Below, piece by piece: positions 1 to 36,100 of a DNA stretch of 55,721 bases. Both the position numbers and the translations under genes were made by a program. Under the pieces are notes generated by a model that saw only the letters and a list, made by a program, of their open reading frames with translations, did not search any database and was not told where the DNA came from. Each line of letters begins with the position of its first letter. The first letter of the stretch is position 1. Origin of the DNA: a virus (lineage: Duplodnaviria; Caudoviricetes); IMG/VR virus record IMGVR_UViG_3300017730_000010, positions 1 through 55,721 of that record. One strand, given 5' to 3'.

Positions 1-81
1 TGCACCAAGCACAACTCAATGACTTTGCTTGGGTAACTCTTCTTCACTCGTTAAGAGATGACCACAGAAAAGATTTAGACC

Positions 82-799: not shown

Positions 800-871
800 T
801 AAGTGACTGACTATCAAGCACTTGGGGCGGGCGGCGGCCAGCCACCTAAGTGACTGAGCCTTAACAACTTA
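800..871. repeat. paired-palindrome element, copy 1
   Basis: TAAGTGACTGACTATCAAGCACTTG + 22 bp GC spacer + TAAGTGACTGAGCCTTAACAACTTA. Confidence 0.9.
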
Positions 872-1112
872 CAGAACCATTAAGTTCGTTTATTAGCTCG
901 TCTAACCTTGGAAGGTCAAGTCCCGAATCGTTCCAAGCGACACCATCGGGTGTGCGGTATCCGATTGCAGAGTCTCCGCTAGTGTCTTTGATGTCGTCAA
1001 CAAATTGCTGATAATCTTGACAATCCCTTGCGAAGTGGTAAAGACCTTCGTCGTTTTGAATCCAAAGGGCGACGTTCCAGGTCTGACGATTTTTCCATCC
1101 GTTATAGCTCAT
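861..1112 (-). CDS. small conserved-type phage protein (YNGWxNxxTWNVALW family)
   Basis: N-terminal motif recalled from many small phage proteins; stop codon lies inside element 1. Confidence 0.8.
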   Translation of the reverse strand: MSYNGWKNRQTWNVALWIQNDEGLYHFARDCQDYQQFVDDIKDTSGDSAIGYRTPDGVAWNDSGLDLPRLDELINELNGSVSC

Positions 1113-1237
1113 AGGTTTTCGGTGTTGTGTCCTGCTCTCCTCATTGAGTGGAGGGCTTCTTGACGGGTCATATTGAATCGGGACATGAGATACATGAGTA
1201 AGTCATTCCCTGTGAGTTGTTGGTTTCTGTCTGTCAT
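1109..1237 (-). CDS. hypothetical protein (42 aa, MTDRNQQLTG...)
   Basis: TTGACA-N17-GATAAT promoter at 1244-1272; ATGA overlap with next gene. Confidence 0.65.
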   Translation of the reverse strand: MTDRNQQLTGNDLLMYLMSRFNMTRQEALHSMRRAGHNTENL

Positions 1238-1249
1238 GATATAATTATC

Positions 1250-1435
1250 TTATATTTTATCGTTTGTGTCAAGGATATTTCCAAGAAAATTTACTTGTTT
1301 TATATCGTAGCCTTTAGCTTCTGATTTTGCAATTCTTAAAGCTTTTGATTGACCTTTTACTTCATCCACTAATCTACCAAAAGAAAAGATTTGAAAAAAT
1401 TGTACAAAGTTTGGGTTGCGTCTTACTGAGATCAT
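1250..1435 (-). CDS. hypothetical protein, paralog of 6171-6362
   Basis: shared pattern NxNF..F.I..FG(R/K)L(V/I)D..K...AL.IA. Confidence 0.75.
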   Translation of the reverse strand: MISVRRNPNFVQFFQIFSFGRLVDEVKGQSKALRIAKSEAKGYDIKQVNFLGNILDTNDKI

Positions 1436-1436
1436 A

Positions 1437-1661
1437 TTAGTTCCATTTGAGGTTTTTGAGACTTGTGTGTTTCTTTAACCACCTACGAAGGTGGTGAAAT
1501 CCATTACTTGACCAATGATTTGAATATGGGGTGATATTTGGATCTTGCAAGACGACTTTATATCCTTTTGCCGTATTTACAATTTCCTTAATGTCATTGC
1601 ATTGGTGCATCTGTTTCATTATCTTTCTGTTGCCCTTGCCCGAGTGTCCTCCTTTAGCCAT
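1437..1661 (-). CDS. hypothetical basic protein (74 aa)
   Basis: AGGAGG RBS upstream; tight operon packing. Confidence 0.75.
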   Translation of the reverse strand: MAKGGHSGKGNRKIMKQMHQCNDIKEIVNTAKGYKVVLQDPNITPYSNHWSSNGFHHLRRWLKKHTSLKNLKWN

Positions 1662-1679
1662 TGTATTATCCTCCTTGAT

Positions 1680-1796
1680 TTAGTATGAAAGGGCTTTTCT
1701 ATGTTTAACCCTGCGTGAATATTTAGACTTATCTTTCATTGGACGAGCCTTGGTGAAAAGAATTGGGATTCTTACTTTAATCTTTTTTTGCTTCAT
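1680..1796 (-). CDS. small basic protein (38 aa, MKQKKIKVRIP...)
   Basis: promoter-like TCGCTA-N17-TAGTCT at 1803-1831, ATG 6 nt downstream. Confidence 0.55.
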   Translation of the reverse strand: MKQKKIKVRIPILFTKARPMKDKSKYSRRVKHRKALSY

Positions 1797-1956
1797 ATAT
1801 AAAGACTAAAGCACTTTTCAAACAATAGCGAGAAAAAAATTAACTAAATACAACTTTTAATTTTATCTAATAATAATTGATAAGAGATACTAATAAATAG
1901 GAACAAATACATAATACTATAAATACATTGACTTATAGTATATAAAAGCTTTATTA

Positions 1957-2027
1957 TAAGTTGTTGATTATCAAGCACTTATGGAATCGGCGGCCAGCCA
2001 CCTAAGTGTCTGACTATTAAAGACTTA
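1957..2027. repeat. paired-palindrome element, copy 2
   Basis: TAAGTTGTTGATTATCAAGCACTTA + TGGAATCGGCGGCCAGCCACC + TAAGTGTCTGACTATTAAAGACTTA. Confidence 0.95.
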
Positions 2028-2029
2028 TG

Positions 2030-2242
2030 TTAGAAGTCGTATTGAGCGTGGTAGCCCCAATCAATATCCTCGTTCTCAGAGAATTGCCGAAGAGCCTGGC
2101 GATCTGCTTCCTCCTCCATTCTGCGGCGGATGATTTGCTGAGACGCAATCTCGGCAAGGACGGATTCCCGTTCCTCGATTTCGAGGTCGGTCATTCCGAA
2201 GGCGTGAGCGGTGCGGGCGAGTGAATCATTTTCGTTTTCCAT
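2030..2242 (-). CDS. hypothetical acidic protein (70 aa)
   Basis: own promoter TTGACT-N17-TACATT (2249-2277); stop 2 bp from element 2. Confidence 0.75.
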   Translation of the reverse strand: MENENDSLARTAHAFGMTDLEIEERESVLAEIASQQIIRRRMEEEADRQALRQFSENEDIDWGYHAQYDF

Positions 2243-2304
2243 ATATACAATGTAGCAGTCTGAGGGCGTGGAGTCAAGGAATATTTTTGTTATTTTACAT
2301 TTTA

Positions 2305-2375
2305 TAAGTCGTTAACTATCAACTACTTACGACGCTGGCCGCCCGCGCCCTAAGTGCCTGAAGGGCAAGGACTTA
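2305..2375. repeat. paired-palindrome element, copy 3
   Basis: TAAGTCGTTAACTATCAACTACTTA + CGACGCTGGCCGCCCGCGCCC + TAAGTGCCTGAAGGGCAAGGACTTA. Confidence 0.95.
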
Positions 2376-2378
2376 CGA

Positions 2379-2528
2379 TTAGGCTTTGAACAAGCCGTAG
2401 CGACGACTGCCGTCGTTATTTGCAAGGCGACGACGCAAGAGCCTCTCGGCATCTTTTTTTCGCATCGCGATGGTTTCAACTTGCCAAACGGATCCCGCTT
2501 GGTTGAGAATGGATTTTAGTATGAACAT
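2379..2528 (-). CDS. hypothetical protein (49 aa, start re-called at MFILKS)
   Basis: AAAAGGAAA RBS; stop 3 bp from element 3. Confidence 0.65.
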   Translation of the reverse strand: MFILKSILNQAGSVWQVETIAMRKKDAERLLRRRLANNDGSRRYGLFKA

Positions 2529-2544
2529 AATTTTCCTTTTGTTA

Positions 2545-2727
2545 TTAGTTAAAAAATGGATGATGGCGAACATCACGAAGACGGATGCCGTGAACGATAT
2601 TAGTTCTGTACTTGCGAACATTTGCACAAGCTCCCCAAGTTGGGTGATTGATTGGATCATCCGTAAGTTGGTAGATTTTCTTGCAACGAGTGACGACGAC
2701 ATCGCCCTTTTTGAATTTGGTTTTCAT
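2545..2727 (-). CDS. hypothetical protein (60 aa, start re-called at MKTKFKKGDVV)
   Basis: AAAGGAAA RBS; FKKGDxV start typical of small SH3/KOW-like phage proteins. Confidence 0.65.
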   Translation of the reverse strand: MKTKFKKGDVVVTRCKKIYQLTDDPINHPTWGACANVRKYRTNIVHGIRLRDVRHHPFFN

Positions 2728-2731
2728 ATTG

Positions 2732-2965
2732 TTATTTCCTTTTTGTGAAAATTGGGTTATTGAGAAACTTGTCCATATCGGCAGATTTTTGTTTTGCCTC
2801 GGCAAGTTGAGATTCAACCTTTGCAAGCTCAGGAAGAGCGAGCATTTCGATTGCCATTTCAACATTGGCATGGGTTGCAGGAGTTGCGTCTTTACGCATC
2901 TTTGCAATGGCGTTATTGATTGACTCGATACGAGATTCGAGAGTGAATATTTCCATTTCTGTCAT
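2732..2965 (-). CDS. hypothetical helical protein (77 aa)
   Basis: promoter TTGCAA-N17-TACCTT (2972-3000), ATG 6 nt downstream. Confidence 0.75.
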   Translation of the reverse strand: MTEMEIFTLESRIESINNAIAKMRKDATPATHANVEMAIEMLALPELAKVESQLAEAKQKSADMDKFLNNPIFTKRK

Positions 2966-2990
2966 ATATATAAGGTAAACTAGTTTTGAG

Positions 2991-3134
2991 TTAATTGCAA
3001 ACTTTTTCTTTTAGTTTCTTTCCGTGGGCTTCGGCTTCTTTGTAAGTGTCAAAGCTCCCTGCGTAGTTGCCGTTCATGTATAAGACAAAATGCTCATTGC
3101 ACCAAGTCGAGAAGGTTTTGATTTCGATTTCCAT
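2991..3134 (-). CDS. hypothetical protein (47 aa, MEIEIKTFSTW...)
   Basis: ORF filling the gap, 3 nt after upstream stop. Confidence 0.6.
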   Translation of the reverse strand: MEIEIKTFSTWCNEHFVLYMNGNYAGSFDTYKEAEAHGKKLKEKVCN

Positions 3135-3137
3135 TTT

Positions 3138-3320
3138 TTAATTTCTGCTTGAAGTTAACTTATGTTGAGCTTGCCACTCGGCAAGCCAATCTTGATTCTG
3201 CTTTAGCAGATCACGAGAGATCTTGACAAGAACGGGGTCGCTCTCGTTTCTGATAACTTCCTTGTGACGGAAGATATCGGCTTGAACCTTTTGGAAGAGT
3301 AGGTGTCGATCATTAATCAT
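3138..3320 (-). CDS. hypothetical protein (60 aa)
   Basis: promoter TTGCAA-N17-TAGATT (3327-3355). Confidence 0.7.
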   Translation of the reverse strand: MINDRHLLFQKVQADIFRHKEVIRNESDPVLVKISRDLLKQNQDWLAEWQAQHKLTSSRN

Positions 3321-3410
3321 ATATACAATCTAAAGGTAAAACCTAGTAATTGCAAGAAAAATCTTCTGAAGTTATTCACAAAAAAACTTTAATGGAGTCG
3401 CATTTTTTCC

Positions 3411-3439
3411 TTGACACCCTTTGACTTTTATGTTATAAT
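3411..3439 (+). promoter_or_regulatory. consensus sigma70 promoter pointing into element 4
   Basis: TTGACA-N17-TATAAT with extended TGn. Confidence 0.75.
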
Positions 3440-3451
3440 GCGGACCTTTCG

Positions 3452-3522
3452 TAAGTTGTTGGTTACCAAGCACTTACGAGGGCGGGCGCCGATGCCCTAA
3501 GTGCCTGATTATCAGTGACTTA
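3452..3522. repeat. paired-palindrome element, copy 4
   Basis: TAAGTTGTTGGTTACCAAGCACTTA + CGAGGGCGGGCGCCGATGCCC + TAAGTGCCTGATTATCAGTGACTTA. Confidence 0.95.
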
Positions 3523-3536
3523 GGATGTCAAGCTTT

Positions 3537-3803
3537 TTATTTCCAAGGATCGAAAAAAGTTGGGTTCATGTCGGCAAGGACATCGCGATTTACTTCGCCC
3601 CAATTCTTGCCATCGTGCCAAGTCATAAAGACTTTTTTACCGCAACCCTTTAGGTAGTTGAGCCATTCGTTAGCTTTTCCCAACTTGTCAAACTTGTAGG
3701 CGTAATCGAATCCGCCAAAGTGAAAGTTGCCGTCCATGCCTAAAGCAAGCCATGGTTTGCGAGGAGATCGATTTATTCCGATTAATTTTATTTGATAATG
3801 CAT
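3537..3803 (-). CDS. hypothetical protein (88 aa)
   Basis: ORF, last gene of cassette; stop 14 bp from element 4. Confidence 0.7.
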   Translation of the reverse strand: MHYQIKLIGINRSPRKPWLALGMDGNFHFGGFDYAYKFDKLGKANEWLNYLKGCGKKVFMTWHDGKNWGEVNRDVLADMNPTFFDPWK

Positions 3804-3804
3804 G

Positions 3805-3858
3805 TTAGTTTTGTTGATAGAAAAAAAGAAGAGAAAGAATAATTATCAAAGGAATCAT
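3805..3858 (-). CDS. micro-ORF, hydrophobic peptide MIPLIIILSLLFFYQQN
   Basis: ATGA overlap with upstream gene, 1 nt before downstream ATG. Confidence 0.45.
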   Translation of the reverse strand: MIPLIIILSLLFFYQQN

Positions 3859-4004
3859 TTTTTAGATTCCTCTAATTTTTGGATTTCACTCCGCAAGTAT
3901 TGCACATGAGCGTCACGAATCGAGCGAAGTGATTCTTTGCGTGAACGATTGAGTTTGTCCTGCCACCAAGCAAGATCTTTTTCTAATTGTTTTTTTGTTT
4001 TCAT
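3855..4004 (-). CDS. hypothetical protein (49 aa, MKTKKQLEKDLAWW...)
   Basis: promoter TTGTAA-N17-TATCTT (4011-4039), ATG 6 nt downstream. Confidence 0.65.
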   Translation of the reverse strand: MKTKKQLEKDLAWWQDKLNRSRKESLRSIRDAHVQYLRSEIQKLEESKK

Positions 4005-4048
4005 ATTATAAAGATAAAGTATTTTTTAAGAAGTTACAAGGAAAAAGA

Positions 4049-4279
4049 TTACTTTTGAAATCTTTTTTCTTGGATGATTTCTTGCCAAGCTTTGCGAGCA
4101 ACTTGAACGGCATTGAGAGCGTCAAGGATTGCCATGCCTTGCGTGATCGAAGATTGCCAATCTTCCTTAGAGGATTCTCCTGCGAGAAATTTGAGATTTC
4201 CCTCTGCTTTAGAGAGAGCAAGACTTAGGTCTAAGTCTCGGTTGATGTCTTTTCTTAATTCTTCTAATGTTTGATTCAT
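4049..4279 (-). CDS. hypothetical helical protein (76 aa)
   Basis: promoter TTGCAA-N17-TACATT (4286-4314). Confidence 0.75.
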   Translation of the reverse strand: MNQTLEELRKDINRDLDLSLALSKAEGNLKFLAGESSKEDWQSSITQGMAILDALNAVQVARKAWQEIIQEKRFQK

Positions 4280-4331
4280 ATTATAAATGTAATCTATTTT
4301 TTGTTAAATTGCAAGGAGAAAACGAATTATC

Positions 4332-4520
4332 TTAAGCAACCCATTTGACAAATTCAAACTTGCGGGGCAAGCCAAACTTTGCAAGGTCACGATTGAGAGA
4401 CTTAATCGAATCGTGATGTTCGCATTTGAGAATTTGATTCTCTGCGATGATGTCGCCCGTCTTGCGGTCAACGATGTTAACTTTGGCGATGAAGCCGTTT
4501 ACTCTTTTATTCTTAATCAT
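4332..4520 (-). CDS. hypothetical protein (62 aa, start re-called at MIKNKRV)
   Basis: promoter TTGCAA-N17-TACCTT (4526-4554), ATG 5 nt downstream. Confidence 0.7.
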   Translation of the reverse strand: MIKNKRVNGFIAKVNIVDRKTGDIIAENQILKCEHHDSIKSLNRDLAKFGLPRKFEFVKWVA

Positions 4521-4608
4521 ACCTAAAGGTAACACATAAACAAGGGAATTGCAAGAAAAACTTTCTAAAGTTATTAACAAATTTTTTTGCCTTGTGAGTA
4601 AAAAACCC

Positions 4609-4637
4609 TTGACAAGCAGAGCTTTTTATGTTATAGA
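4609..4637 (+). promoter_or_regulatory. sigma70-type promoter pointing into element 5
   Basis: TTGACA-N17-TATAGA with extended TGn; similar to 3411-3439. Confidence 0.55.
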
Positions 4638-4648
4638 AGCCTTACTCG

Positions 4649-4719
4649 TAAGTCATTGTCTATCAAGCACTTACGAGAGCGGGCGCCGATCCCCTAAGTG
4701 CCTGACTATCAGTGACTTA
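4649..4719. repeat. paired-palindrome element, copy 5
   Basis: TAAGTCATTGTCTATCAAGCACTTA + CGAGAGCGGGCGCCGATCCCC + TAAGTGCCTGACTATCAGTGACTTA. Confidence 0.95.
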
Positions 4720-4824
4720 GGAGGGCCAAAACCACACTATAAGGCAAGGTATTAGCGTAGCTGAAAAGGGTATTAGGATTTGTATTAGGTCTAACATATT
4801 TTTATAGAGTTGTCAAGGATTTTT

Positions 4825-5088
4825 TTAGTAAAGATATTGCTCAGTTGAATCTTCCCATACATGGGTCAACTTAAAGTCGGTAGTTTTCCAAGGTGAAAAA
4901 TCTGCCTCGCCTATCAAGGCAATTCTTTCGGATATCTCTAGCTCTAAGGGATGCACCTCTGAAGAGCCTTGCATATTGTAGACCTCTACCTCTGAAGGGT
5001 CATCCTTCAGTACACGAGTGATTTGAGCCTTGAAGCTGAAGAAGTTTACCCTACGAGTAGGAACATTTTTATTTGATTGATTTAACAT
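4825..5088 (-). CDS. hypothetical protein (87 aa)
   Basis: promoter TTGACT-N17-TACATT (5095-5123). Confidence 0.7.
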   Translation of the reverse strand: MLNQSNKNVPTRRVNFFSFKAQITRVLKDDPSEVEVYNMQGSSEVHPLELEISERIALIGEADFSPWKTTDFKLTHVWEDSTEQYLY

Positions 5089-5143
5089 AAGTATAATGTA
5101 ATGGATTTTTTAGGAAAAGTCAAGAGAATTGCAAAGTTTTTTT

Positions 5144-5497
5144 TTACCAATTCCTTGGCATTTCGTTATTGGAAAGAAACCTTTCGGCTTCGTAGGGAGA
5201 GCAACGAAGATCATCGCAGATGTCTGCAAGTCTTTCTTCTCTTGCTTCGGCACGAGATTGACGATAGCGAGTGACCTTGCAAAAGCGAGGGTCTGCTTCG
5301 GCATCTGCCATTTCTTTTAGTTGATCGAAAAGATCCCAAGAAACAATTCCCTTCTTGCAAAAGTTATAAGCACATTGCTTACGAGAGACACCTTCGATCT
5401 CGAAGATGTGGCGAGCCTTGTTTTCGTTGTAAACGCTAAGGCTTGCGTTTATTACCTTGTCGGAGACTTTGTTGAATTTGATGTATATTAGTTCCAT
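5144..5497 (-). CDS. hypothetical protein (117 aa)
   Basis: promoter TTGCTT-N17-TACATT (5543-5571), with a leader. Confidence 0.7.
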   Translation of the reverse strand: MELIYIKFNKVSDKVINASLSVYNENKARHIFEIEGVSRKQCAYNFCKKGIVSWDLFDQLKEMADAEADPRFCKVTRYRQSRAEAREERLADICDDLRCSPYEAERFLSNNEMPRNW

Positions 5498-5572
5498 AAT
5501 TTTTTTATTTTAGTAGTTTATCTTTCTTAATCTTATATATACAATGTAACACAGATGAAGCGAAAAAGCAAA

Positions 5573-5647
5573 TTATTTCTTCACTTTTTTTTGTTTAGTT
5601 ATTACGAATTTACAAAGGATTTTTTCTCTTTCAGTTAAGTTAATCAT
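5573..5647 (-). CDS. micro-ORF or gene remnant (24 aa, MINLTEREKIL...)
   Basis: promoter TTGACT-N17-TACCTT (5653-5681), ATG 5 nt downstream. Confidence 0.4.
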   Translation of the reverse strand: MINLTEREKILCKFVITKQKKVKK

Positions 5648-5752
5648 ACCTAAAGGTATCACAGAAAAGCCGAAAAGTCAAGAAAAACTTTCGACTATCT
5701 TTTTGCACAATCCTATTGCATAGATTGGCATGGTATGTGTGCAGCTGTTTCG

Positions 5753-5823
5753 TAAGTTGTTGGCTATTAGGCACTTATGGAAACGGCGGCCCGCCACCTA
5801 AGTGGCTGACCATCAATGACTTA
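5753..5823. repeat. paired-palindrome element, copy 6
   Basis: TAAGTTGTTGGCTATTAGGCACTTA + TGGAAACGGCGGCCCGCCACC + TAAGTGGCTGACCATCAATGACTTA. Confidence 0.95.
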
Positions 5824-5874
5824 CGGGTTATGTTGTGCAGTAGTATAGGACAACACTTCCGACGATTATGACAA

Positions 5875-6183
5875 TCATACGACGAGAGGATTAGGCAACT
5901 TTGTGTTGCAAAAGTGCCAATCGAATGAGTCAATGATTTCCCCATTAAGGACAGGCTCAAAGTTGACTTGGTGAACACCTGCATTGGCAATGCCGTTGAC
6001 TCGTTCGCGTGTGGTTGGAGTATTCCAACCTGCAAGTGACCACTCGACCACGCCAAAGGCGTCTCGTTTGATTATGGCGTTACCATGAAGCCAAACGGTT
6101 TGCCCGTCTGTCTCGGTGTTGCCGACTTTTTTAGATGTGCCTTGTTCAAAGGCGAGTTTGATTTGTTCGGTTACTTTTCGCAT
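5875..6183 (-). CDS. small conserved-type phage protein (LHGNxI...GWxTxTT(R/K)xR family)
   Basis: motif pattern recalled from small early phage proteins. Confidence 0.8.
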   Translation of the reverse strand: MRKVTEQIKLAFEQGTSKKVGNTETDGQTVWLHGNAIIKRDAFGVVEWSLAGWNTPTTRERVNGIANAGVHQVNFEPVLNGEIIDSFDWHFCNTKLPNPLVV

Positions 6184-6362
6184 GGTATGATTTCCCCTTC
6201 TCTTACGATTAAAACTCTTTCACCTTGCAAAGATAATTCTTTCTTTTTTCTGCTTGCAATGTTCAAGGCTTGAGCCTCTGTCTTTGTGTTGTCGATTAAC
6301 TTTCCGAAAAGTCGAATGTCGAACCACTCGGAAAAATTTGCGTTTTTTATTATTGTTATCAT
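6171..6362 (-). CDS. hypothetical protein, paralog of 1250-1435
   Basis: promoter TTGCAT-N17-TACATT (6369-6397); sequence similarity. Confidence 0.75.
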   Translation of the reverse strand: MITIIKNANFSEWFDIRLFGKLIDNTKTEAQALNIASRKKKELSLQGERVLIVREGEIIPCEK

Positions 6363-6406
6363 GTTATAAATGTAAACCTTTTTTGTAATTAATGCAAGGT
6401 AAAAGA

Positions 6407-6622
6407 TTACTTTGTGAAGTAATCTTTTACTTGTTGAGAGGTTGCCTTGCTAAGGTCGGAAATGTAAACTTCCGATTCAAACAAGTGATCTTGCTTGTGA
6501 TGCTTAATGGTAGCAACCCGAAGACCGCCCTTGATGCGATCAAGTGAGACGAGTCTCACGGCTTTATTGTTTTGCGAGGAGTGGTAAATGCCTCCGACTT
6601 TTAATCCTTTAGTAATGTTCAT
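6407..6622 (-). CDS. hypothetical protein (71 aa, start re-called at MNITKGLKVG)
   Basis: promoter TTGCAA-N17-TACATT (6629-6657), ATG 6 nt downstream. Confidence 0.7.
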   Translation of the reverse strand: MNITKGLKVGGIYHSSQNNKAVRLVSLDRIKGGLRVATIKHHKQDHLFESEVYISDLSKATSQQVKDYFTK

Positions 6623-6698
6623 ATTATTAATGTAAGCTTTTTTTTGTCGAATTGCAAGGAAAAAGAGAAAAAAGATTCGATTATTTTGTTGCACAATC

Positions 6699-6757
6699 CC
6701 ACCCCCGTTTTTTGAATTTATTTTGGCGGGCGACGCCAGCATATCGGCGGGGGGTGG
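6699..6757. repeat. GC-rich nested inverted repeat at the early/late boundary
   Basis: CCACCCCCG ... CGGGGGGTGG enclosing hairpin TGGCG-GGCGA-CGCCA. Confidence 0.6.
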
Positions 6758-8289: not shown

Positions 8290-8579
8290 TGAGAATTAAA
8301 TATTGTAAATCATGCGGTCATAAAAACCAGTTCATAGGGCTGGAACCAAAGTTTTGTTCAAGTTGCGGGGCGAGTTTTCAAAAAGGAACTTCTCAAGTTA
8401 CAAAATCTAAAATTGCTAATAGACAAAAACTTAACGAGGATGAAACAGATGTTGATTTCGTTCCTAATATAGCCAGTCTACAATACAGCGTATCTCCATT
8501 TGAAAAGAAGACATTCAAAATGGAAGAAATGTTCGATCTTGAAGATGATGGCGGAAACTCCGAAAAGAAAAAGAGGTAG
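8289..8579 (+). CDS. zinc-ribbon protein
   Basis: CKSCG...FCSSCG. Confidence 0.75.
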   Translation: MRIKYCKSCGHKNQFIGLEPKFCSSCGASFQKGTSQVTKSKIANRQKLNEDETDVDFVPNIASLQYSVSPFEKKTFKMEEMFDLEDDGGNSEKKKR

Positions 8580-9279
8580 ACCAAAGAAGGTAAAATTTGA
8601 GGATAAATATGAAATTATTGACACTCAAATTGCAAAAAGGAAAGGTAAGTGGTTTCTTAAGGCTATATCCTGGATAAGCTGGGAAGATGTTGGGCAAATA
8701 ATAAGATCTCATATATATAATAAATGGCACCTGTGGGATCAAAAAAGACCGTTAGAACCTTGGTTAAATAGAATCATATCTAATCAGATAAAAAATATAT
8801 TAAGAAACCATTATGGTAATTTTATTAGACCTTGCGCTCAATGCCCTTTCAACGCCTCTGGATCTATTGACAACATAAATGATGCTAATTTCTGTAGTTG
8901 GACTAAAACTGGCAAGCAAGATAGTTCTTGTCCTTTATTCTTGAAATGGGAAAAGACTAAAAAAAGCTCCTTCCAAATAAACATGGCTTCAAGTATAGAT
9001 GCTAATGAAAATATAAACGTTGGACTCTGTAAACACTTTGACATTGACCATTCTAAAAATAAATTAAATAAATTAATGAAAGAAAATTTAACAGAAAAAC
9101 AATATCATATATATGAGATGCTATATATAAAAGATTTAGATATTACCGAGGCTGCTGAAAAATTGGGTTACAAAAGCAATGAGAAAGGCCGTAAGGCGGG
9201 GTACAAGCAAATAAAGAACTTTGAAAAATTATTTAAAGATACTGCTAAAAAATTAATATCCGAACACGACATAGTATGA
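8545..9279 (+). CDS. RNA polymerase sigma-like factor with N-terminal AT-hook and Cys4 insert
   Basis: region-2-like WDQKRPLEPWLNRIISNQIKN; region-4-like LTEKQYHIYEMLY...EAAEKLGY; start re-called. Confidence 0.65.
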   Translation: MMAETPKRKRGRPKKVKFEDKYEIIDTQIAKRKGKWFLKAISWISWEDVGQIIRSHIYNKWHLWDQKRPLEPWLNRIISNQIKNILRNHYGNFIRPCAQCPFNASGSIDNINDANFCSWTKTGKQDSSCPLFLKWEKTKKSSFQINMASSIDANENINVGLCKHFDIDHSKNKLNKLMKENLTEKQYHIYEMLYIKDLDITEAAEKLGYKSNEKGRKAGYKQIKNFEKLFKDTAKKLISEHDIV

Positions 9280-27158: not shown

Positions 27159-30100
27159 ATGAACCCCATTGTAAACATACCAACAGGTGCGAGTGGCTAT
27201 AGGCAAAGTATAGTCTCTCAAGCTCAGGCTGCTCAAAGAACTGTTAATAATATGCAGATGAGTCCAAGGTTGAACCCAAATGGATTTGTACAACCTTTAG
27301 GTAAAATTACTAATGCAGCCAGTGAGTTTCAAAAGTCAATGGATGCTTCTGCCGCTCGTGTATTTGCGTTTGGAGCAGCCGTAGGAGTTATTAATGGAAT
27401 TAGTGACGCTTTTAAAACTTTAGTGACATCAGCTGTAGAAGTAGAAAAGTCTCTTAAAGATATTCAAGTTGTTATGGAAGCTACTGATTCTGCAATGCAA
27501 AAATTTGGAGATGGTTTATTTGACGTAGCTAGAAATACGGCAACTAGTTTTGATTTGGTTGCAGCTTCAGCAACAGAGTTGGCCAGGCAAGGCTTAAGTG
27601 CGGAAGAAACTTTAGCAAGAGTTAACTCAGCACTTATTCTTAGCAGGCTATCTGGGTTAGACACAGTAAAGTCAACAGAAACTTTAACAGCAGCAATCAA
27701 CTCTTTTAATAAAGAGGGTATAACGCATGAACAAATAGTTAATAGAATGGCTAATGTAGATGCAGCTTTTGCTGTCTCATCTGCAGACTTAGCTGAAGCC
27801 ATATCAAGAGCGGGCGCTGTCGCTCAATCTTCTGGAGTTTCGTTTAATCAATTGTCAGCTATTGTAACAGCGGTTCAACAAAGAACTGCTCGTGGGGGAT
27901 CTGTTATTGGTAATGGATTTAAAAGTATATTTACAAGAATTAAGAGGAGTGGAGTGAGAGAAGCTCTTGAAGAAATAGGCGTCACAACCAAAGAAATGGA
28001 TGGAAGTTTTAGATCTTCCATAGATATTATAAAAGATTACGCAAAAGTTTATCAAACATTAACAGATACTCAAAAAGCTTATACATCAGAACAAATAGCT
28101 GGAGTCTTCCAAATACAAAATTTACAAGCTTTAATACAAGATTTGAATAGTGGGTATTCAGTATTTAATAAAGCTTTATCAGTTGCTAACAATACAACAG
28201 ATCAAGCGACACAAAGAAATAAAGCGTTGAACGAAACCTTAGATGCAATATTTAAATCAACAACTTTAAGCGTAAAAGAGCTCTCAGCATCACTTGGGTC
28301 TTTAGCTTTTGAGGATAGCTTTAAAAGTATATTAAAATTTGTAGGTAATTTAGCTGATAGCTTAAATGGATTATTCGATGAAGAAACTGGTAGCAGTTTA
28401 GCTAAAAATTTAGTTAAAGGTATAGGAGCTTGGATAACTGGGCCTGGCGCAGTCTTACTAGGAGCAGCGTTTTTCAAAATTTTCTCACTAGTTGGGAAGT
28501 TTGCTAAAGACGCTTTCAAAGATCTTTTAGGTATAAATATGGAAGCAAAACGCCAGCAGTCATTGCAGGCTGCTATAGGTTCTATATTGATGAAAAACGA
28601 ATCTATATATAAACAAATATTAGCAGCTAGTGGAAACTCCGCTAGGCAAGAACAAATTATTTTAAATATAGTAAAACAAGAAACTGCAGAAAGAGTTAAA
28701 CAAGAAGCTTTAATAAAAAGAATAGCTTCATCTAGCGCATTAGTGGGGGTTGGAGCTGGAGATACTGGTTTTGTGCCGATGGGAAAGAGAGCTTCCAGAA
28801 AACGAGGTAAGCAAACTTTAGGTTTAGCAGGGGGATATTTACCTTCAATAAATAAAGAACACCATTCAATATCAAAGGGAGTTGGAGGAGCCAGAAGAGG
28901 TGATAGACCAGTTGTTCTTAAAAATCATTCTATGGGGGGTGGAAAAAAACAGACTGTTGTAGCTCATACTGGAGAGTGGAGGGTTCCTAATTTTGGTGGT
29001 AGCGGGGGAGACGCTATATTTAATAGATCTATGGTTAAAAAATTTGGGCTGCCAAGTGGCGCAAAAAAGATAACTGCGGCAGATGGTTTAATACCTAATT
29101 TTGCTAAAGGAACTCAAAAAGTAACAGCCACGGCAGCGCAATTAGGGTGGAAGGAAGTTGTTGGTAGAGGTAGGCCAAATGAAATAGGAAAAAGATCTGA
29201 TAGGATAGATTCGTTTACGGGAAGAATTAAACTTGAAAGATTAAATAAAACGAGTAGTCAAATAGGTACAATGGCTAATCAGACTTTATCTGGAAAGGGG
29301 TCTGTAAAATCTAGATCACTACCATTTTTTATACCAAAGGGTGACAAATATATATTAAACCCGCAGTATAAAGACGCTAACGACGCAATTAAACAAAAAT
29401 TAACAAATCAATTTGGAAAAAAAGCATTGGCGAGCGGAACAGGTTTGAATTTAAAAAATCAAATCCAAACACTTTCTGCGGGCTTTGATAAAAGAAAATC
29501 TGCAATAAAATTTAAAAGTTTAAATACTTTATTAAAAGGTTTACATGGAGAAAAACTAGCTATATCTCATTTAAAGAATAAAGGGGTAAAAGCAGAGGCA
29601 ATTGAAAGTAGTGGATTTTTCGACTTAAAAACATCTAGGAGAAAATTCGAAGTTAAGTCTGGCAAAAAAATAAACAACTTTGAAATATTGAAGAAAGCTG
29701 CAAGCGAATTTCTTATGTCAAGCGGAGGAGATAAAGAATCTGGATATCCGTTTAAAAATAAAATAGCTGAAAGGATAGACGTATCAAGGAAAGCTGGATT
29801 AGGAAGATTTATAAACTTAGTTTTACCAAAAGGGTCTCCATCAGAAAATGTATTTGATAAAAAAGGACAGCCTGTAATACAGGCTCCAAGATCAGCAGCT
29901 TCTGGATTTATTCCTAATTTTGCCAGAAGATTTACAGATGTTAAGTCTTGGGGCGGAGCTAGGTCCAAAAAACTTAAAGACACTGGCTCGTATTTAGAAT
30001 ATGAAGGTGATCATATATCTCACATAGCGTCACAGAAGAAGGGTGACGCTAATTTATTATTTGATAAGTTCATGAAACAAAAAGGTACTGTTACCAGTGG

Positions 30101-33100
30101 AGGTTTAACTCAAAATAGAAGTTTTAAAGAAAATTCTAAATCTAACTTTGAGGATTTAATGTACGCTTTCCCTCAGTTGCAATATAGATTAAAAAAAGGA
30201 TTACAGACCACAGGAAGATATGTTGGGGCAGATGGAGACACTTTTAGATTTCAATCTCTCATAGGTTTAAAAGAGCAAATTAATAAAAAATATCGAAGAG
30301 GAGAATTCAGAGATATGTTAGGGAATAAAAGCGGCCCTCCAGGAATGGGTTCGATGGATATTCAAGATTTAGTTACATCTAGAGTTTCAGGCGCTGGAGA
30401 TAATATATATAAAAATTACGCAGAAGGTCTTGTCCCAAACTTTGCCGCAGGAGTACTGACATCAAAAGGGTTTTTTACTCCTCAAAAAATTAGAAGACTG
30501 AGAGACGGAGAGTTCTCAAAAACAGAGAGTGGTGATCGAATTTATTTAAGTCAATTTAGTAAGCAGGATCAAGATAAAATTACTGGATTTGATGCGCAAT
30601 TTTCTAATAAAAATGTAGCTAAGGCTGCAGCCGCAAGTAAAGCAAAGAAAGGGGCTATGCCTACTATAGACGCATCTAGGCAAGCTACAATGCTTGTTGC
30701 GACGAATAATTTAAGAAAAAAAGTAGACTCAACTTATAAACATAAGGGAACTGATTTTAGGTTAAAATATAGGGTGGAAGGTTTAAAGCCATCTAGGTTA
30801 AAAGGTTCAGAGGCTAAGCTTAGAGAAAGAATGCAAACTTCAATGTTGAGAGAATCAAGTTCTTTCGCAAAACAATTGTCTGGGGCGGGATCATTTGGTG
30901 CTAATACCCCAAGCGTTACACAACTTTCAAATGCTGGAGCTCCAGGGGCTGCGGCGGGAACAGTGTTTGAAAGCGCACTCAAAGCAGTAGGTAAAAATAA
31001 ATTATTTACAAAAAACAATGCTGGTTTTGATATTGGTGGTTATCCTGATGGAAGCTTGCAAAATTTATTTGGTTATTACACTCCATTTGCTGACGCAAAG
31101 ATAGGGTTAACTCCAGACACCAAAAGAGATTTTCATGGTAAGCTAATGGGACTGCCTACTAGTGGGGCAGCAATAAACGCTGCAAACAAAAAGAAACAGG
31201 GTCAGATGGCTATGACTACTAGAGCTAAATATGGAGCTCCTAGTTTTGCTAGCGGTTTCATACCTAATCTAGCTAAGTTTAAACCAAAAGACTTTGGCTT
31301 GAGTGACGACAGAGCTAATCAACTACAAAGTTATGTTGACAAAAGAAAAAGTGAGGGTCGTCCATTTAAATTTGAGAATTTGCTAGGCGGAAGTAAAATT
31401 AAAGCTCAAGGTAGAATAAACCTTGTTACAAAAGAGTTGGGCAAAGACAAAAAAATAACTGCTACTCGATTAAAGAAAGAAGAAATTCAAAAATCAAAAG
31501 ATTTTGCCACAAAGAGGGCTCAAGCTGGAATAAACACCCTTAGGTCTGTGAGTGGCGCAGGTGGCGCGTTTGCCGTAACTAAAGCAAACGCAAATTCGAC
31601 GGCAATCACTGGTTTAGAAGCGCGCGTTTCAAGACTAGAATCCTTACAAGCAAGAAGCAATGTTAATAATTTTGCTGGAGGTTTCGTGCCTAACTTTGCT
31701 GCTCCCGAACTCCCCTTTAACTCAGACACAATAATTAGAAAAGCTGTAACTCAAAATGTAGGAGGGATAAATAGCGACGGATTCACGATGGCTAAAGATG
31801 GAACTTTAATGTTTAATGATAGAGATTTTAATCCTGGTAATAAAAAACATCTTAATTCATTGATGAATAATAAAAAATTTAAATCTCATATTCATGATCA
31901 AATAAATAATGAATTAAGATCTATTCAAAAATACAATACTGGATTAGCTGGCATGGGTAGATCTTTTGCAGAAAAAACTGGGCTCGCTATAATTAATCCT
32001 AATTTAGCTGTTGATCAAAGTAAAATAGTACAAAGAGATTACTTGAGAGATATGGCTAATAATGTAGAGGGAGCTTCCGTTCAAACAACTAGATTTAAAA
32101 CTGGAGCAGGAGACGCTATAAAGAAAGACATTCATTATGGTGGAATGTATAAGCATGATCCGAGAGACAGGTCAAGGGTAATTTTTAACCCATCGGCTTT
32201 AGATCAATTATTTACCAAGAAAAATTATGGACAATCAAATATAGATGTGCCAACATTTATAGAAGTTGAAAGAAGAAGGAGGCAAGCTGCATCTCAGGGT
32301 GGCAAAAACAAAAGAATGAGTTTATCGCCAAAAAGAACTATGCAAACAGCTACCGACCTTATAACAGGAGGATTTAATTTCGGAGGCAGACTTATAACGG
32401 GAGGAATAAATGCGTTGGGGAATATAAAAAAAGCGGGTCGTGATAGAATAGGCAAAAGAGTTCAGTATGTAAGAGATTTGAAACAACGATTTAATCTTTC
32501 TGAAATGACCGAGGGTGGAAGAAAAAGATTTTCAGCAATTAAAGAATCTGCTAGGAGTAAAGCAAGAAATTTAGGTGGCACTTTAAAAGGTGGGCTTGAG
32601 AAATTAAAACCATCATTGGGTGGCGTTACGTCTAATCCATATGAAACAGCTTACGAAAATGAAGAAAGATTAGCTCGAGAAAACCCAGTAGCGCAAGCTG
32701 AAGAAGCTTTTCTTGAAAAAGAAAACGAAAGGTTTAATAAAAGAAATAATTTTGCAAGAAGATTTAAGATTGGAAAATATAAATTTAAGAAACGCTTAAG
32801 GGGAAGAATGACCAAGGTTTCTGATAGGTTGAATAGTTTCGGCACTGGAGCTTCTGATTTTATAGACAGAAAAAAAACTAAAGTTAGTGGCATGCTTAAA
32901 GGTTTTGGCCCTGGAGTAACTGGGCTTATAGACAAAGGGGGAACTCTATTTAGTAATATGCTAAAGGGTTTGGGGTCTGGAACTTCTGGACTAGTAAACA
33001 AAGGTAAAGATAAAATTTCGTCAATAATAGATGCTGCTGGATCCCAGGTAAACGAAAAAAGATTCAACCCTTCAGATTTAACTAAAAAAAGCGTAAGTGC

Positions 33101-36100
33101 TTTATGGAAAAGAATTACAGGTGGAATAAAACTAGGTTTTATAAATCCAGACACCTTAAAAATACTTAGTGCATTTAGAGGTTTAGGTTCACCTGAAATT
33201 TCTGCACTTAAGATTAAAGAGGGTATAACAAAAAAAGGTCAGATAATTAGAAGAAACGCTTCTGAAAAATGGAAATTTCTACAAGAAAATATAGGTAAAG
33301 CTTTGGGCGTTGGTGGAGAAAAACTAAATCAAGCTCTTAAGGCTGGAAAATTAAGAACCCAAAACTTTTTTACCGCAGCTGGTGAATTTAAACCTAATTT
33401 GGGCGGAGAAAAAATTAAAGAACTAGCTAAAGCTTTAGGCGTCAGAGTTCAGGATTTAAGAAAAAAAATAAAAGACGCCAGAGATTCAAGAAGGCAGTCT
33501 GCACAGAAAAAAGATCCATTCTTAAAACCAGGAGCGATAACAGAAAGATATAATAAAACAAGAACCGCGATAGGAGATTTATTTAATAGAGGGGTAGCCT
33601 TGAAAAATAGAGCTGTTGAAGGAGGAATTAATTTAGGAAAGAGGGGGTTAGAAAAAGCAAGCAATTTAAGTAAGATGGGGTTAGCGGGGGTACAGAGCGG
33701 CGGAAGAGCTGGAGTGAAATTTGCCAAAGGTAGAGGTGGAATTGCTGTGGGTGGGGCTACAGCCATTGCTGGATTAGGTTACGCACTGTCTGGGATGTTT
33801 GAGTCGGACGGAAGCTCTTCTCAAAAAAGAAGCAATGCTGAGTTAAAACAATTAACTAAATACGATTTTCAAAACGCAAAACAAAAATCATTAACAAAAA
33901 ATGGCTCCGTTGTCACTTATAGTGTTGGACCTAATGGAACAATATTAAAAGTCTCTACCGATAAAAGTGGTAAGGTTAAAACTGAGAAATTAACACAAAA
34001 AAACCCTGAGTTCCATACTGCTGCAAAATCAATGGGAGTCACAACCGATAAAGGGGGCTTGCTTGACAACACTGAAAGAAGAAATGGTAGAATTTTTGTT
34101 AATGGCTCAGAGATGAGTAATGCTGAATTTAATCAATTAAGAAAAGAAGAGCTTTATGGCCCAGATTTTGAAGTTATGGGTATAGGAGCTGGAGGTTTAG
34201 GGATTGGAGCTGGATTAGGATTGGTTGGAGCTTTAGCTCTAGTGGCTAATAAACAGCATAAAGAAAGAGTTTCTAAAGAAATTGATGCAATAGAAAAATC
34301 TACCATGACTGATGAGCAAAAAAGCTTAAAGAAAAGAATTGCTTTGTTAGATCCAGTTGATAGAAATTCTTTTGAAAAATATAAAAATAATTTAAAATTA
34401 GAATTAACAGAAAAAAGAAAACAACTGAACGTGGCTAAGTCAGACCCAAATGTTAAAAATGCTCTAAACTTTCAAAAATCTGGGGCAGCTGGGCCAAGCT
34501 TACCTATTCCAGATGACGTTAAAAATTTAATAGATGATATAGCTCTTTTAGATGATAGTTCTAAAAATCCTGAAAAGAGTTTTCTTGCAGATGATGGCGG
34601 CGCTAAAATAGAGCGAAGGTCTAGGGCAGAAGCAGTATTAAAAAAGAGAAAAGAAAAAAGAATTAATAGAGGTAATCCTTCTGCGCTAAGACGTTTTGGA
34701 AGAAGAATGCCGCTTATAGGATCTAGGTTTTCTGACGGTTTCATTCCCAACTTTAATAGATTAGCTGTTGCAGCTCAACAAAGAAGAACTCAACAATCAT
34801 ATTTAAGTAAAAAAGACATTAAAATTCTTGAAAGTAAAAGAGATGATATTCTTTCGATGGGTGTTAATATAGGAACTAGGCCAATAACTTCAACAAACAT
34901 GCCCTTTGGTAAAAGACTCAGCGGCGCAGAACTTGATCAGTTATCTGCAAATTTGAGATCAATGAATATAGATAAAGGTTTAATTGGTAGAGTTATTAAT
35001 AGCCATAAGATGACACCATCTGAAATTAATCGCGCAAAGTTACAAGACTTTATATATAAAAATAAACAAGCTAGAGATGTAGGGGGGAAGCTAGCTAATG
35101 TTAAAGCCTACAAACCAATGAATGAAGAAAGGTATGATCCATTTAGAACTTCTAGGCAAAATAAAACTGCTTCTGGTGGACTTATTCCTAATTTTGCTCC
35201 AAGATGGAGGCGTCAGAAAAAATTAAATAAACCGAGAAAACCAGGAGAAGGAAAAATTTTAAAAGATAAAGAGAAAGAAATGCAACTTCTTGCAGACAGT
35301 TATGCGAGGGGTGAAATAAGCACTCGAAAAATGAGAGAGCTTAAAGAGAAAATTGATCCTTTTGGAGTATTAGACGATGTAATACAAGGGCTTTTCTCTG
35401 ACGGATATATTCCAAATTTTTCAAACCCATTAACTGACGCTATAGCTAGAGAATCGTCTGCATTAAGTGATAGGGGGGTTTCCCTAGGTGCAATAAGGGT
35501 TGAACAGTCAAACTCTCTTAAGAACTCAAGGAACCCATCTGGGCTTGCTGTAACAAATACCTTTGATGAACCAGCTGGAGTTCAACAAGGAATAAATCGA
35601 TCTAGATCTATGGGTATAAACCCAAAGTCTCACGGGGCGGCAACAGGCTTTGTTCCTAGTTTTGCTGCAGGTATAGGTGCCAACTTGTTAAAGACTTTGA
35701 TGAACGTAAGAAACATGAAAGGGATTAAACAAACACTTGATGTTCTGGGAAAACCAGTCAAGGGGGTTAGAGATCTTGAAATGGGTCCATTGAAAAAAGG
35801 CTTTTTTAACTCAGAACAAATGAACGCGGGTATGATGGCAAGTTTTCCATTAATGATGTTAACGGAACAAATGAGAGCTTCTCAGGCCGAAGGCGGTGGA
35901 AATGTGTATACGGACATTGGGACAGAGGCTATGATGGGAGCTTCTTTTGGAGCTATGGGTGGAGTTAAGGGTGCTGCAATTGGAGCTATTGGTGGGGGCA
36001 TATATGGAGCTACAAAAGGGTTTTCTGGGGAAAGAGAGACTGCAAAAGCTTTTGCGGACGCCTTAAAAAGACAACTTGACGTAGTTGGAAAAGCTGCTGG

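Follow-up and report, generated by a model that had tools for sequence, protein, structure and literature searches.

The window analyzed here is the viral record IMGVR_UViG_3300017730_000010 at its full length of 55,721 bases (completeness rating, 41%), which derives from an uncultured marine phage. Between positions 800 and 5823, the window carries six copies of an intergenic element that consists of two 25-bp palindromic units separated by a GC-rich spacer, and each unit is built as the consensus binding sequence of integration host factor (IHF) on both strands. Judging from the sequence, we see an approximately even chance that these elements have an architectural role as double-stranded DNA, each being bound by two dimers of an IHF-type protein of the host; they would then be a phage analogue of the bacterial interspersed mosaic elements (BIMEs) and of the RIB elements.

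Element anatomy and the IHF consensus

An exact-pattern scan of IMG/VR returned 48 loci with 64 distinct elements, of which 58 had GC-rich spacers and were used to build a covariance model, R1. The family-wide unit consensus is YAA-gtnn-YTGATWATCAR-nnac-TTR. Each 25-mer corresponds to the IHF consensus WATCARNNNNTTR on both strands with one central base in common (YAA-NNNN-YTGATWATCAR-NNNN-TTR); the IHF consensus has been given as WATCAR-N4-TTR (PMC8942017; bioRxiv 10.1101/382655). In the 58-element set, the search pattern had forced TTR and left positions 6–20 free. At the six free WATCAR positions, 77 of the 232 half-sites were exact, compared with 0.4 expected from shuffled unit interiors, and 82 of the 232 had one mismatch; at least one exact IHF site was present in 46 of the 58 elements. 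T9 and A17 were invariant in all 116 units, though not demanded by the search, A17 being kept in 232/232 half-sites and a purine at R18 in 230/232. Among relaxed copies (160 elements with 210 departures), T24 never departed and T23 did so 7 times. In 179 degenerate copies, 330 departures from the twelve “fixed” letters were counted, 205 of them at the four N positions; of the remainder, 51 kept Y1/R25 and 74 broke the consensus. Half-sites of the short-spacer lineage were exact in 51 of 140 cases and had one mismatch in 66 of 140. Within the window, WATCARNNNNTTR gave 23 matches versus 11.5 ± 3.25 in shuffles (0/100 shuffles reached 23), and 8 of the 23 lay inside the six elements, where 8 of the 24 half-sites were exact. 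Over the family loci, the elements make up 6,792 of 519,271 bases but hold 109 of the 438 exact consensus matches.

In IHF complexes, the WATCAR segment is enclosed by two kinks that are 9 bp apart and TTR belongs to the flanking DNA; the footprint is longer than 25 bp (bioRxiv 10.1101/382655). We infer that the 11-bp core of the phage unit could hold the 9-bp inter-kink segment either way round. No HU/IHF protein (PF00216) exceeded the Pfam cut-off in any of 32 related records (0/32; the control matched in 10 genomes). Since these phages have no HU/IHF homologue, the likely binder would be the IHF-type protein of the host.

The six elements, with their pairs of 25-bp palindromes and 21- or 22-bp spacers, had been located in a preliminary description of the sequence, and both reading and a repeat finder, the latter as its families D1 and D3, recovered them at the same places. 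Copy 1 (800..871; units 800–824, which ends in ACTTG, and 847–871) has a 22-bp GC-rich spacer (825–846) and lies between converging genes, namely plus-strand open reading frames (ORFs) ending at 652 and 778 and a minus-strand gene (861..1112) whose stop codon is inside the right unit; exact WATCARNNNNTTR is found at 812–824 (+). The other five copies have 21-bp spacers and follow minus-strand genes. Copy 2 (1957..2027; units 1957–1981 and 2003–2027) begins 3 nt past the stop codon of the gene at 2030..2242 and has the exact IHF consensus at 1957–1969 (−) and 1969–1981 (+). Copy 3 (2305..2375; units 2305–2329 and 2351–2375) begins 4 nt past the stop codon of the gene at 2379..2702, lies 27 nt upstream of the −35 region of a promoter-like site at 2277–2249 (−), and is exact at 2317–2329 (+). 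Copy 4 (3452..3522; units 3452–3476 and 3498–3522), 15 nt past the stop codon of the gene at 3537..3803, is exact at 3498–3510 (−) and 3510–3522 (+), and copy 5 (4649..4719; units 4649–4673 and 4695–4719), 106 nt past that of the gene at 4825..5088, is exact at 4661–4673 (+) and 4707–4719 (+). Copy 6 (5753..5823; units 5753–5777 and 5799–5823) begins 52 nt past the stop codon of the gene at 5875..6183 and has no exact IHF consensus; by reading, its plus-strand half-sites are each one letter off (left, C16>T; right, W13>C).

In the 55,721 bases, the pattern TAAGT-N15-ACTTR had only 12 exact matches, and each element contains two of them; with one mismatch allowed, it gave 34 strand-matches versus 12.2 ± 4.4 in shuffles, and 0/100 shuffles reached 34. 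The repeat finder showed the window copies to be 70–90% alike, and similarity within a genome was approximately 70% outside the conserved letters. That the copies are co-oriented, as first described, was borne out by R1, which scored the plus strand above the minus strand in the four copies with both scores among the matches listed (copy 4, 79.6 versus 71.0 bits; copy 5, 80.3 versus 68.2; the remaining two, 74.4 versus 64.9 and 70.4 versus 65.1); copies 1 and 6 appeared among these matches on the plus strand only (64.1 and 74.7 bits, respectively). The spacer subfamilies 1/2/6 and 4/5 were likewise visible in the spacers. A division of the spacer into 7 + 7 + 7 bp with GGCGGCC, GGCCGCC or GGGCGCC at the center could be read in copies 2–6 and did not extend to the relatives; the rule of inner TAAGTG and outer TAAGTY half-sites held in the window except at the left end of copy 1. 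The strict 25 + 21 + 25 geometry with a 7-bp center had to be abandoned, because the spacers of the relatives measure 9–25 bp and their central letters are lineage-specific.

Two further features adjoin individual elements. A 16-nt inverted repeat (94% complementary; 4600–4615 and 4810–4825) brackets copy 5 and its neighboring promoters at approximately ±100 nt. Position 4809/4810 is also where contigs from two runs of a single study break off (one has a loose end), and this may mark a mosaic joint in a related strain. A conserved block TTGGCA-N17-TTTCG (reverse complement) abuts some elements on the promoter side, in the window at 5700–5740 and also in L022, L042, L045, L007, L009 and L026; it was considered as a sigma-70 or sigma-54 promoter and rejected, as by reading its spacing fits neither.

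Position at gene ends, and DNA versus RNA

Among the 160 elements that were far enough from the locus ends, 115 followed the stop codon of an ORF directed at them by no more than 60 nt (median, 6 nt), and in 42 of these 115 the stop codon was inside the element, often as its own TAA. Fourteen elements were situated between converging genes and 1/160 inside a long ORF; the next co-oriented gene started a median of 105 nt further on. A canonical terminator (GC stem plus T-run) was located within 100 nt and read toward the element in 24 of 173 cases, and at least 10 of these 24 ended 16–24 nt before it. In locus L012, the order is gene, CCCCCC-GAAA-GGGGGG-T7 terminator, 18 nt, unit array, 5–16 nt and the −35 region of the next promoter. 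By reading, no T-run follows the units or the spacer, and a terminator scan of the window listed no terminator at any element. An intrinsic terminator as the main role of the element was therefore rejected, since it has no U-tract and the true terminators are separate neighbors, often approximately 20 nt upstream.

A leaderless-type promoter (TTGNNN-16..18-TANNNT-4..9-ATG) reading away from the element was found within 300 nt of 108 of 165 elements, the background of this pattern being 0.48 per kb per strand, and the distance from element to −35 was below 30 nt in 46 of 116. In the window, consensus matches and reading placed sigma-70-like sites on the minus strand at 1272–1244, 2277–2249, 3318–3366, 4307–4280, 5123–5095, 6376–6349 and 6650–6623. 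These sites consist of TTGACA or TTGCAA, 17 nt and TAnnnT, with an ATG approximately 6 nt after the −10 region, and constitute repeat family D2; with such spacing, the small early genes would be expressed from leaderless or near-leaderless mRNAs without a Shine–Dalgarno sequence. A phage sigma factor as the reader of the elements themselves was discarded, because by reading they fit no −35/−10 pattern and they are absent from the late region.

The positions that would form RNA stems vary independently. Complementarity at the position pairs 8–18, 10–16 and 6–20 equaled the product of the column frequencies (z, −0.5 to 1.8), shuffles within genomes agreed, and changes in the outer TAAGT/ACTTA were compensated in only 32 of 209 cases. 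Positions 6–7 had earlier been described as varying without compensating changes, and the within-unit pair 6–20 was in fact formed in only 112 of 338 units. This independence argues against RNA stems, and the covariation that the preliminary description had named as grounds for giving up its proposal was absent at the variable stem positions. The proposal itself, a dyad-symmetric double-stranded DNA site bound most simply by two dimers, is supported by the independent variation, the invariant T9 and A17, and the IHF consensus on both strands.

Several observations weigh against an IHF-type protein as the binder. The consensus used is that of E. coli, the host may not have IHF, and the match was noticed after approximately a dozen other motifs had been compared, which somewhat discounts its significance. 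In good copies, conservation is also high at G4, T5, A21 and C22, where the E. coli consensus has N. The IHF sites known so far are asymmetric, with the consensus in one half and often an A-tract in the other; here, both halves carry the inverted consensus around W13, and we know of no described IHF site with two inverted consensus copies on one shared base. The unit centers are 34–50 bp apart and hence have no fixed helical phase, and the distances to the next −35 region in the window (27, 73, 85, 94 and approximately 130 bp, by reading) have no common phase; a family-wide helical phasing to the −35 region (Rayleigh p, approximately 5e-6) was driven by related copies, was absent in the window and is a hint only. 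In addition, the elements are polar relative to gene direction (leave-one-out assignment was right in 31/37, and 7/9 fitted in the complete genome), flank-to-spacer complementarity immediately outside the units reached 558 of 1,352 pair positions versus 492 ± 13 in within-genome shuffles, which is what hairpin or cruciform formation would give, and G·T-type mispairs favored the antisense strand 55:17 (29:15 after dereplication). Complementarity, polarity and mispair bias are left unexplained by IHF binding and favor a strand-specific or hairpin role.

The complementarity and the mispair bias also speak for an alternative in which the elements act as RNA, namely as a 3′-end stabilizer, a processing site, a back-up or bidirectional terminator, or an antisense small RNA (sRNA) of approximately 85 nt with two hairpins; we regard this alternative as improbable. 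It would suit the position of the elements right behind stop codons. The plus strand folded more stably than shuffles in five of the six copies (z, −3.75 to −4.7), RNAalifold drew two hairpins, and the two-hairpin model was 75.3% paired versus 73.6 ± 0.6 in column shuffles (0/500). A perfect sigma-70 promoter (TTGACA-17-TATAAT, 3411..3439, +; 12/12 letters) reads into copy 4, and RNA-library contigs extend into copies 2 and 3. Set against this are the lack of covariation and of compensated outer changes described above, the missing U-tract, and the canonical terminators that precede the element in several lineages, so that little sense transcript should reach the elements there. An antisense RNA has no general promoter at its disposal: among 58 elements, the mean best score of promoters reading into the element was 6.75 versus 6.77 on the other side. 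An antisense sRNA with its own promoter was accordingly rejected, because such a promoter is seen at copy 4 and, in weaker form, at copies 5 and 2 only (a weaker homologue of the 3411..3439 promoter before copy 5, and TTGACT-18-TATTAT at 1928–1957 before copy 2). The dyad symmetry of the whole element, moreover, would be purposeless for an RNA made from one strand.

Other folds were examined as well. One long hairpin was no better than shuffles, and the co-variation of L20 with R6 was seen between genomes (z, 6.7 overall) and not within them (104 versus 108.8). A hairpin of the spacer alone was no better than shuffles either (19–25-nt spacers, −6.70 versus −6.06 kcal/mol); many 15–17-nt spacers are visibly palindromic, which the overall dyad symmetry explains likewise. 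Rfam gave no match at the gathering score in the window, and its four sub-threshold matches were at chance level, none of them at the elements. N4-type hairpin promoters for a virion RNA polymerase were discarded, as the 4,465-aa ORF of the window is of the tape-measure type (PF10145); a T7-like RNA polymerase profile had no match in five records, but its control matched nowhere either. The four RNA-library runs gave 14 contigs at low depth, most of them as long as a single read, that cover gene bodies; such contigs may derive from DNA and are silent on transcription, ends and strand, and parts that they leave uncovered carry no meaning. Two 151-nt contigs of an oligo-dT library (run X18) end at 1974 in copy 2 and at 2321 in copy 3, that is, at left-unit positions 18 and 17, which flank the invariant A17; these ends could be a coincidence or a hint of an RNA end.

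Related phages, recombination and mobility

R1 matched all 32 searchable related records, with 4–26 strand-matches each, corresponding to 2–13 elements. In the one record rated 100% complete, which is 205,857 bp long, the nine elements were all located within 25.2–34.4 kb, among small genes. A relaxed scan of 575 kb of loci yielded 160–179 distinct elements. Spacers of 19–25 bp were found in the relatives, 23 bp being the commonest length, and a further scan added 55 elements with 9–18-bp spacers, 33 of them 17 bp long. Of 312 good units, 293 had a partner; in L012, two to four near-identical units form arrays with 15–17-bp GC spacers. The phages fall into at least two clades by gene content, which have no protein cluster in common across the sampled early regions and share TerL (41–42% identity) and the sigma-70-family gene described below (40–47% identity). 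That the letters of the element are kept across clades with diverged early proteins fits a binder that is a host factor. The inner half-site letters L20/R6 and the spacer cores are lineage-specific.

In one clade (L008, L033, L047, L051, L005 and L024; for example, L008 8370–8620), a complete element is followed by a degenerate, inverted second one. The gap between the two is approximately 85 nt and contains two direct repeats (gatcttag...caaaa), and the degenerate element lies 6–16 nt upstream of the next −35 region. The sense strand has a G-rich core, GGGAGG, in most gene-oriented cases.

A scan of 185,579 species genomes did not find double units around a GC-rich spacer; the seven matches that it gave were judged unrelated, their spacers being AT-rich to mixed and without TGA/TCA. 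The bacterial double-unit matches L053, L055 and L059 (one Planctomycetota repeat, on contigs of metagenome-assembled genomes), L054 and L058 are enclosed by terminal inverted repeats of their own of approximately 20 bp (...TACTCGGACAG) and resemble a separate family similar to miniature inverted-repeat transposable elements (MITEs). The viral contigs L044 (4303–4847), L081, L094 and L074 carry arrays of other TAAGT...ACTTA palindromes (one inner sequence is CCTTGCTACATAAGG), whose spacers are AT-rich and which do not match WATCAR; these may be sites of another protein sharing the outer pentamers. A literature search for four element strings in the full text of articles retrieved unrelated primers only, and a general search on phage intergenic palindromes retrieved nothing relevant; judged solely on these string and palindrome searches, the element family is undescribed.

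The six copies of the window are associated with a block of small minus-strand genes (861–6742), mostly without known families. The minus-strand genes at 1250–1435 (61 aa) and 6171–6362 (63 aa) are paralogues of each other; their family of 55–72-aa proteins occurs in 15 of 37 sampled contigs, and its representative has no Pfam match. After the small genes, the plus strand encodes PhoH, thioredoxin, a sigma-70-family protein, TerL, head proteins and a tape-measure protein. The last of these ORFs (27159–40556, +; 4,465 aa) has PhageMin_Tail (PF10145, residues 124–315) as its sole Pfam match; its product is an exceptionally long tape-measure protein, which implies a very long tail. No isolate matched at the DNA level; no isolate had a TerL more than 27% identical, and the portal and the putative capsid ORF had no match among isolates. 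Near-identical DNA was present in marine, seawater, aquatic or viral metagenome runs from several studies beyond the possible sources of the record. As to the host, WhiB as a pointer to actinobacteria was found in none of five records, and the L5_gp82 and GP88 family matches were too little to name one. ARAGORN detected no tRNA genes in the window.

The sigma-70-family gene (8500–9279, +) is similar to the extracytoplasmic function type, with weak region 2 and region 4 matches and an AT-hook, and adjoins the element region in 10/10 records checked. Its DNA-binding domains and conserved place bring up the alternative that the elements are operators for a phage-encoded regulator other than IHF, whose dimer or tetramer on four half-sites would shut off, activate or roadblock early transcription. 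Models for such a system are the stoperators of mycobacteriophage L5 and the p4 sites of phi29. The DNA-level evidence, i.e. invariant letters together with independent variation, serves this alternative equally; the conservation of G4/T5 and A21/C22 exceeds what the IHF consensus needs, L20/R6 and the spacer cores co-vary between genomes only, as if tracking a co-evolving protein, and a single 9-kb stretch of the 205-kb genome contains all its elements. We nevertheless consider it unlikely. No candidate binder was identified, and the neighboring gene, which has over 1,400 homologue clusters in metagenomes, encodes a sigma-70-family factor of an ordinary kind and not a protein of the repressor type. 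The core is kept across clades without detectable common proteins in the sampled early regions, and the fit to the IHF consensus, including its tolerant positions, would have to be a coincidence. In the preliminary description, a regulator or partition site had been the fallback; a regulator site comes closest to our reading, and a partition site is unlikely given 6–13 copies, each between a gene end and a promoter.

That description had placed foremost a recombination site with a 7-bp overlap, and had recommended a search for a co-occurring tyrosine or serine recombinase. Neither Phage_integrase (PF00589) nor Resolvase (PF00239) was detected in any of the 32 records, although both controls matched, and Y1_Tnp was also absent (0/32 for each of the three, including one record rated 100% complete). 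The core site of a tyrosine or serine recombinase has a fixed overlap of 6–8 bp between its arms, and a cognate recombinase; the spacer here is 9–25 bp with lineage-specific letters, and its center is not conserved. Site-specific recombination for cassette exchange (att, dif or attC type, with the spacer as the crossover region) is consequently very improbable in our estimation. It would explain why small ORFan cassettes each end in a palindromic element, often over the stop codon, much as an integron attC follows the ORF of its cassette and overlaps the stop codon. A homology block shared with one relative ends exactly at 2027 and blocks shared with two relatives start exactly at 2305, both being element edges, and IHF sites are accessory parts of lambda att sites; IHF was in fact discovered as a host factor for lambda integration (PMC8942017). 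Mosaic joints also occur at plain gene ends, however, and in 147 of 147 close comparisons both flanks were conserved with the element in place.

These counts come from 156 comparisons of flank pairs, of which 147 were occupied by one element, 9 had larger inserts and 0 were empty sites. The element is not recently mobile. The absence of empty sites and of a Y1 transposase makes a selfish miniature mobile element of the MITE or REPIN kind, spreading within and between phage genomes, a highly unlikely explanation. Terminal inverted repeats that start and end in TA, many copies per genome, lineage-specific subfamilies and presence in clades with different gene content are in line with such an origin, and a precedent exists in the doublets of repetitive extragenic palindromes (REPs) mobilized by REP-associated tyrosine transposases (RAYTs) (PMC2817692). 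The copies in a genome, on the other hand, are only approximately 70% alike outside the conserved letters, and species genomes gave no double unit with a GC spacer, only seven matches of other kinds.

Proposed role and comparison with known systems

If the elements are host IHF-type sites, one dimer would bind each 25-bp unit and bend this AT-rich DNA sharply on either side of the stiff, GC-rich and often palindromic spacer. Situated past a stop codon or terminator and upstream of the next sigma-70-type leaderless promoter, the elements would mark the boundaries of early cassettes, and the doubly bent complex may insulate neighboring cassettes against the spread of supercoils or read-through. 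Alternatively or in addition, it might assist the early promoter that follows; at the early promoter of Mu, IHF bound upstream counteracts H-NS repression (PMC8501957). The repeats may also serve as homologous joints for cassette exchange, in view of the homology blocks that end at 2027 and begin at 2305. A more far-reaching version, possible but doubtful in our view, is an “inverse BIME” insulator on every early cassette throughout a family of abundant, uncultured, large aquatic phages, in which two symmetrized IHF sites would clamp a GC-rich palindrome and host IHF, or an unrecognized phage protein with IHF-like specificity, would impose a double U-turn. Each cassette would then be topologically and transcriptionally autonomous, the AT-rich early DNA would be shielded from silencing by the host, and the elements would provide the joints at which cassettes are exchanged.

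Binding by host IHF would mean that the elements point to an IHF-bearing host for a very abundant family of uncultured phages, and that sites of a host factor can be used by phages to assemble architectural or insulator elements resembling BIMEs. The role proposed here would amount to a host-factor-dependent insulator system in a virus and would provide a concrete mechanism for the modularity of variable early regions. In that case, the compact (59–75 bp) and easily synthesized element could also be used as a strong module for double bending or insulation. Should IHF not be the binder, the elements would still be an undescribed cis element of the whole family, and one whose binder is worth finding.

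The units share with IHF sites the 13-bp consensus with its fixed 4-bp gap, here on both strands of each unit, the tolerance of change at the N, R and Y positions of the consensus, and an AT-rich composition; their 25 bp fit the footprint of more than 25 bp (10.1101/382655). Like the IHF site at Mu Pe, they are intergenic and upstream of early promoters (PMC8501957). They differ in being a symmetrized double consensus on a shared central base, in obligate pairing around a GC-rich spacer and in the conservation of four N positions.

The PeSLs (promoter-early stem-loops) of T4-like phages are conserved and composite regulatory sequences, lie between small variable genes of a hyperplastic region and have been proposed to act in modular shuffling (PMC4122927). 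The present elements are likewise repeats between small variable genes, with block joints at their edges and a sigma-70-type promoter behind them. A PeSL, however, is a terminator stem-loop plus an early promoter, whereas the conserved module described here is neither, and the phage is not T4-like. With lambda att, dif, loxP and attC, the elements have in common inverted arms around a central spacer and an attC-like place right after the cassette ORF; they are set apart by the variable, unconserved spacer, by the lack of a recombinase, and by arms that are palindromes matching the consensus of a bending protein. MITEs and REPINs show presence/absence polymorphism with target-site duplication and have near-identical copies; the present elements gave no empty sites in the flank-pair comparisons, and the window copies are not near-identical.

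A resemblance also exists to the BIME-1 and RIB (RIP) elements of enterobacteria. In a BIME-1, an IHF site is flanked by two inverted REPs, and such elements are located at the 3′ ends of transcription units (PMC2817692); a BIME has been reported to impede the diffusion of supercoils (PMC6907758), which is the kind of insulator role proposed here. Both groups occur as repeats between genes, where a transcription unit ends, and each element is a composite with dyad symmetry that joins IHF-type sites to GC-rich palindromic DNA. In the phage elements the order is inverted, the IHF-type units flanking the GC-rich part; they are phage-borne, with 2–13 copies in one early region, whereas BIMEs are chromosomal and present in hundreds of copies, and they are accompanied by neither a RAYT nor signs of mobility. 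The elements are thus more similar to the intergenic repeats of bacteria than to a recombination site. They are best filed under kinds already known, with IHF sites and BIME/RIB-like composite repeats, as a variant that has symmetrized, paired units.

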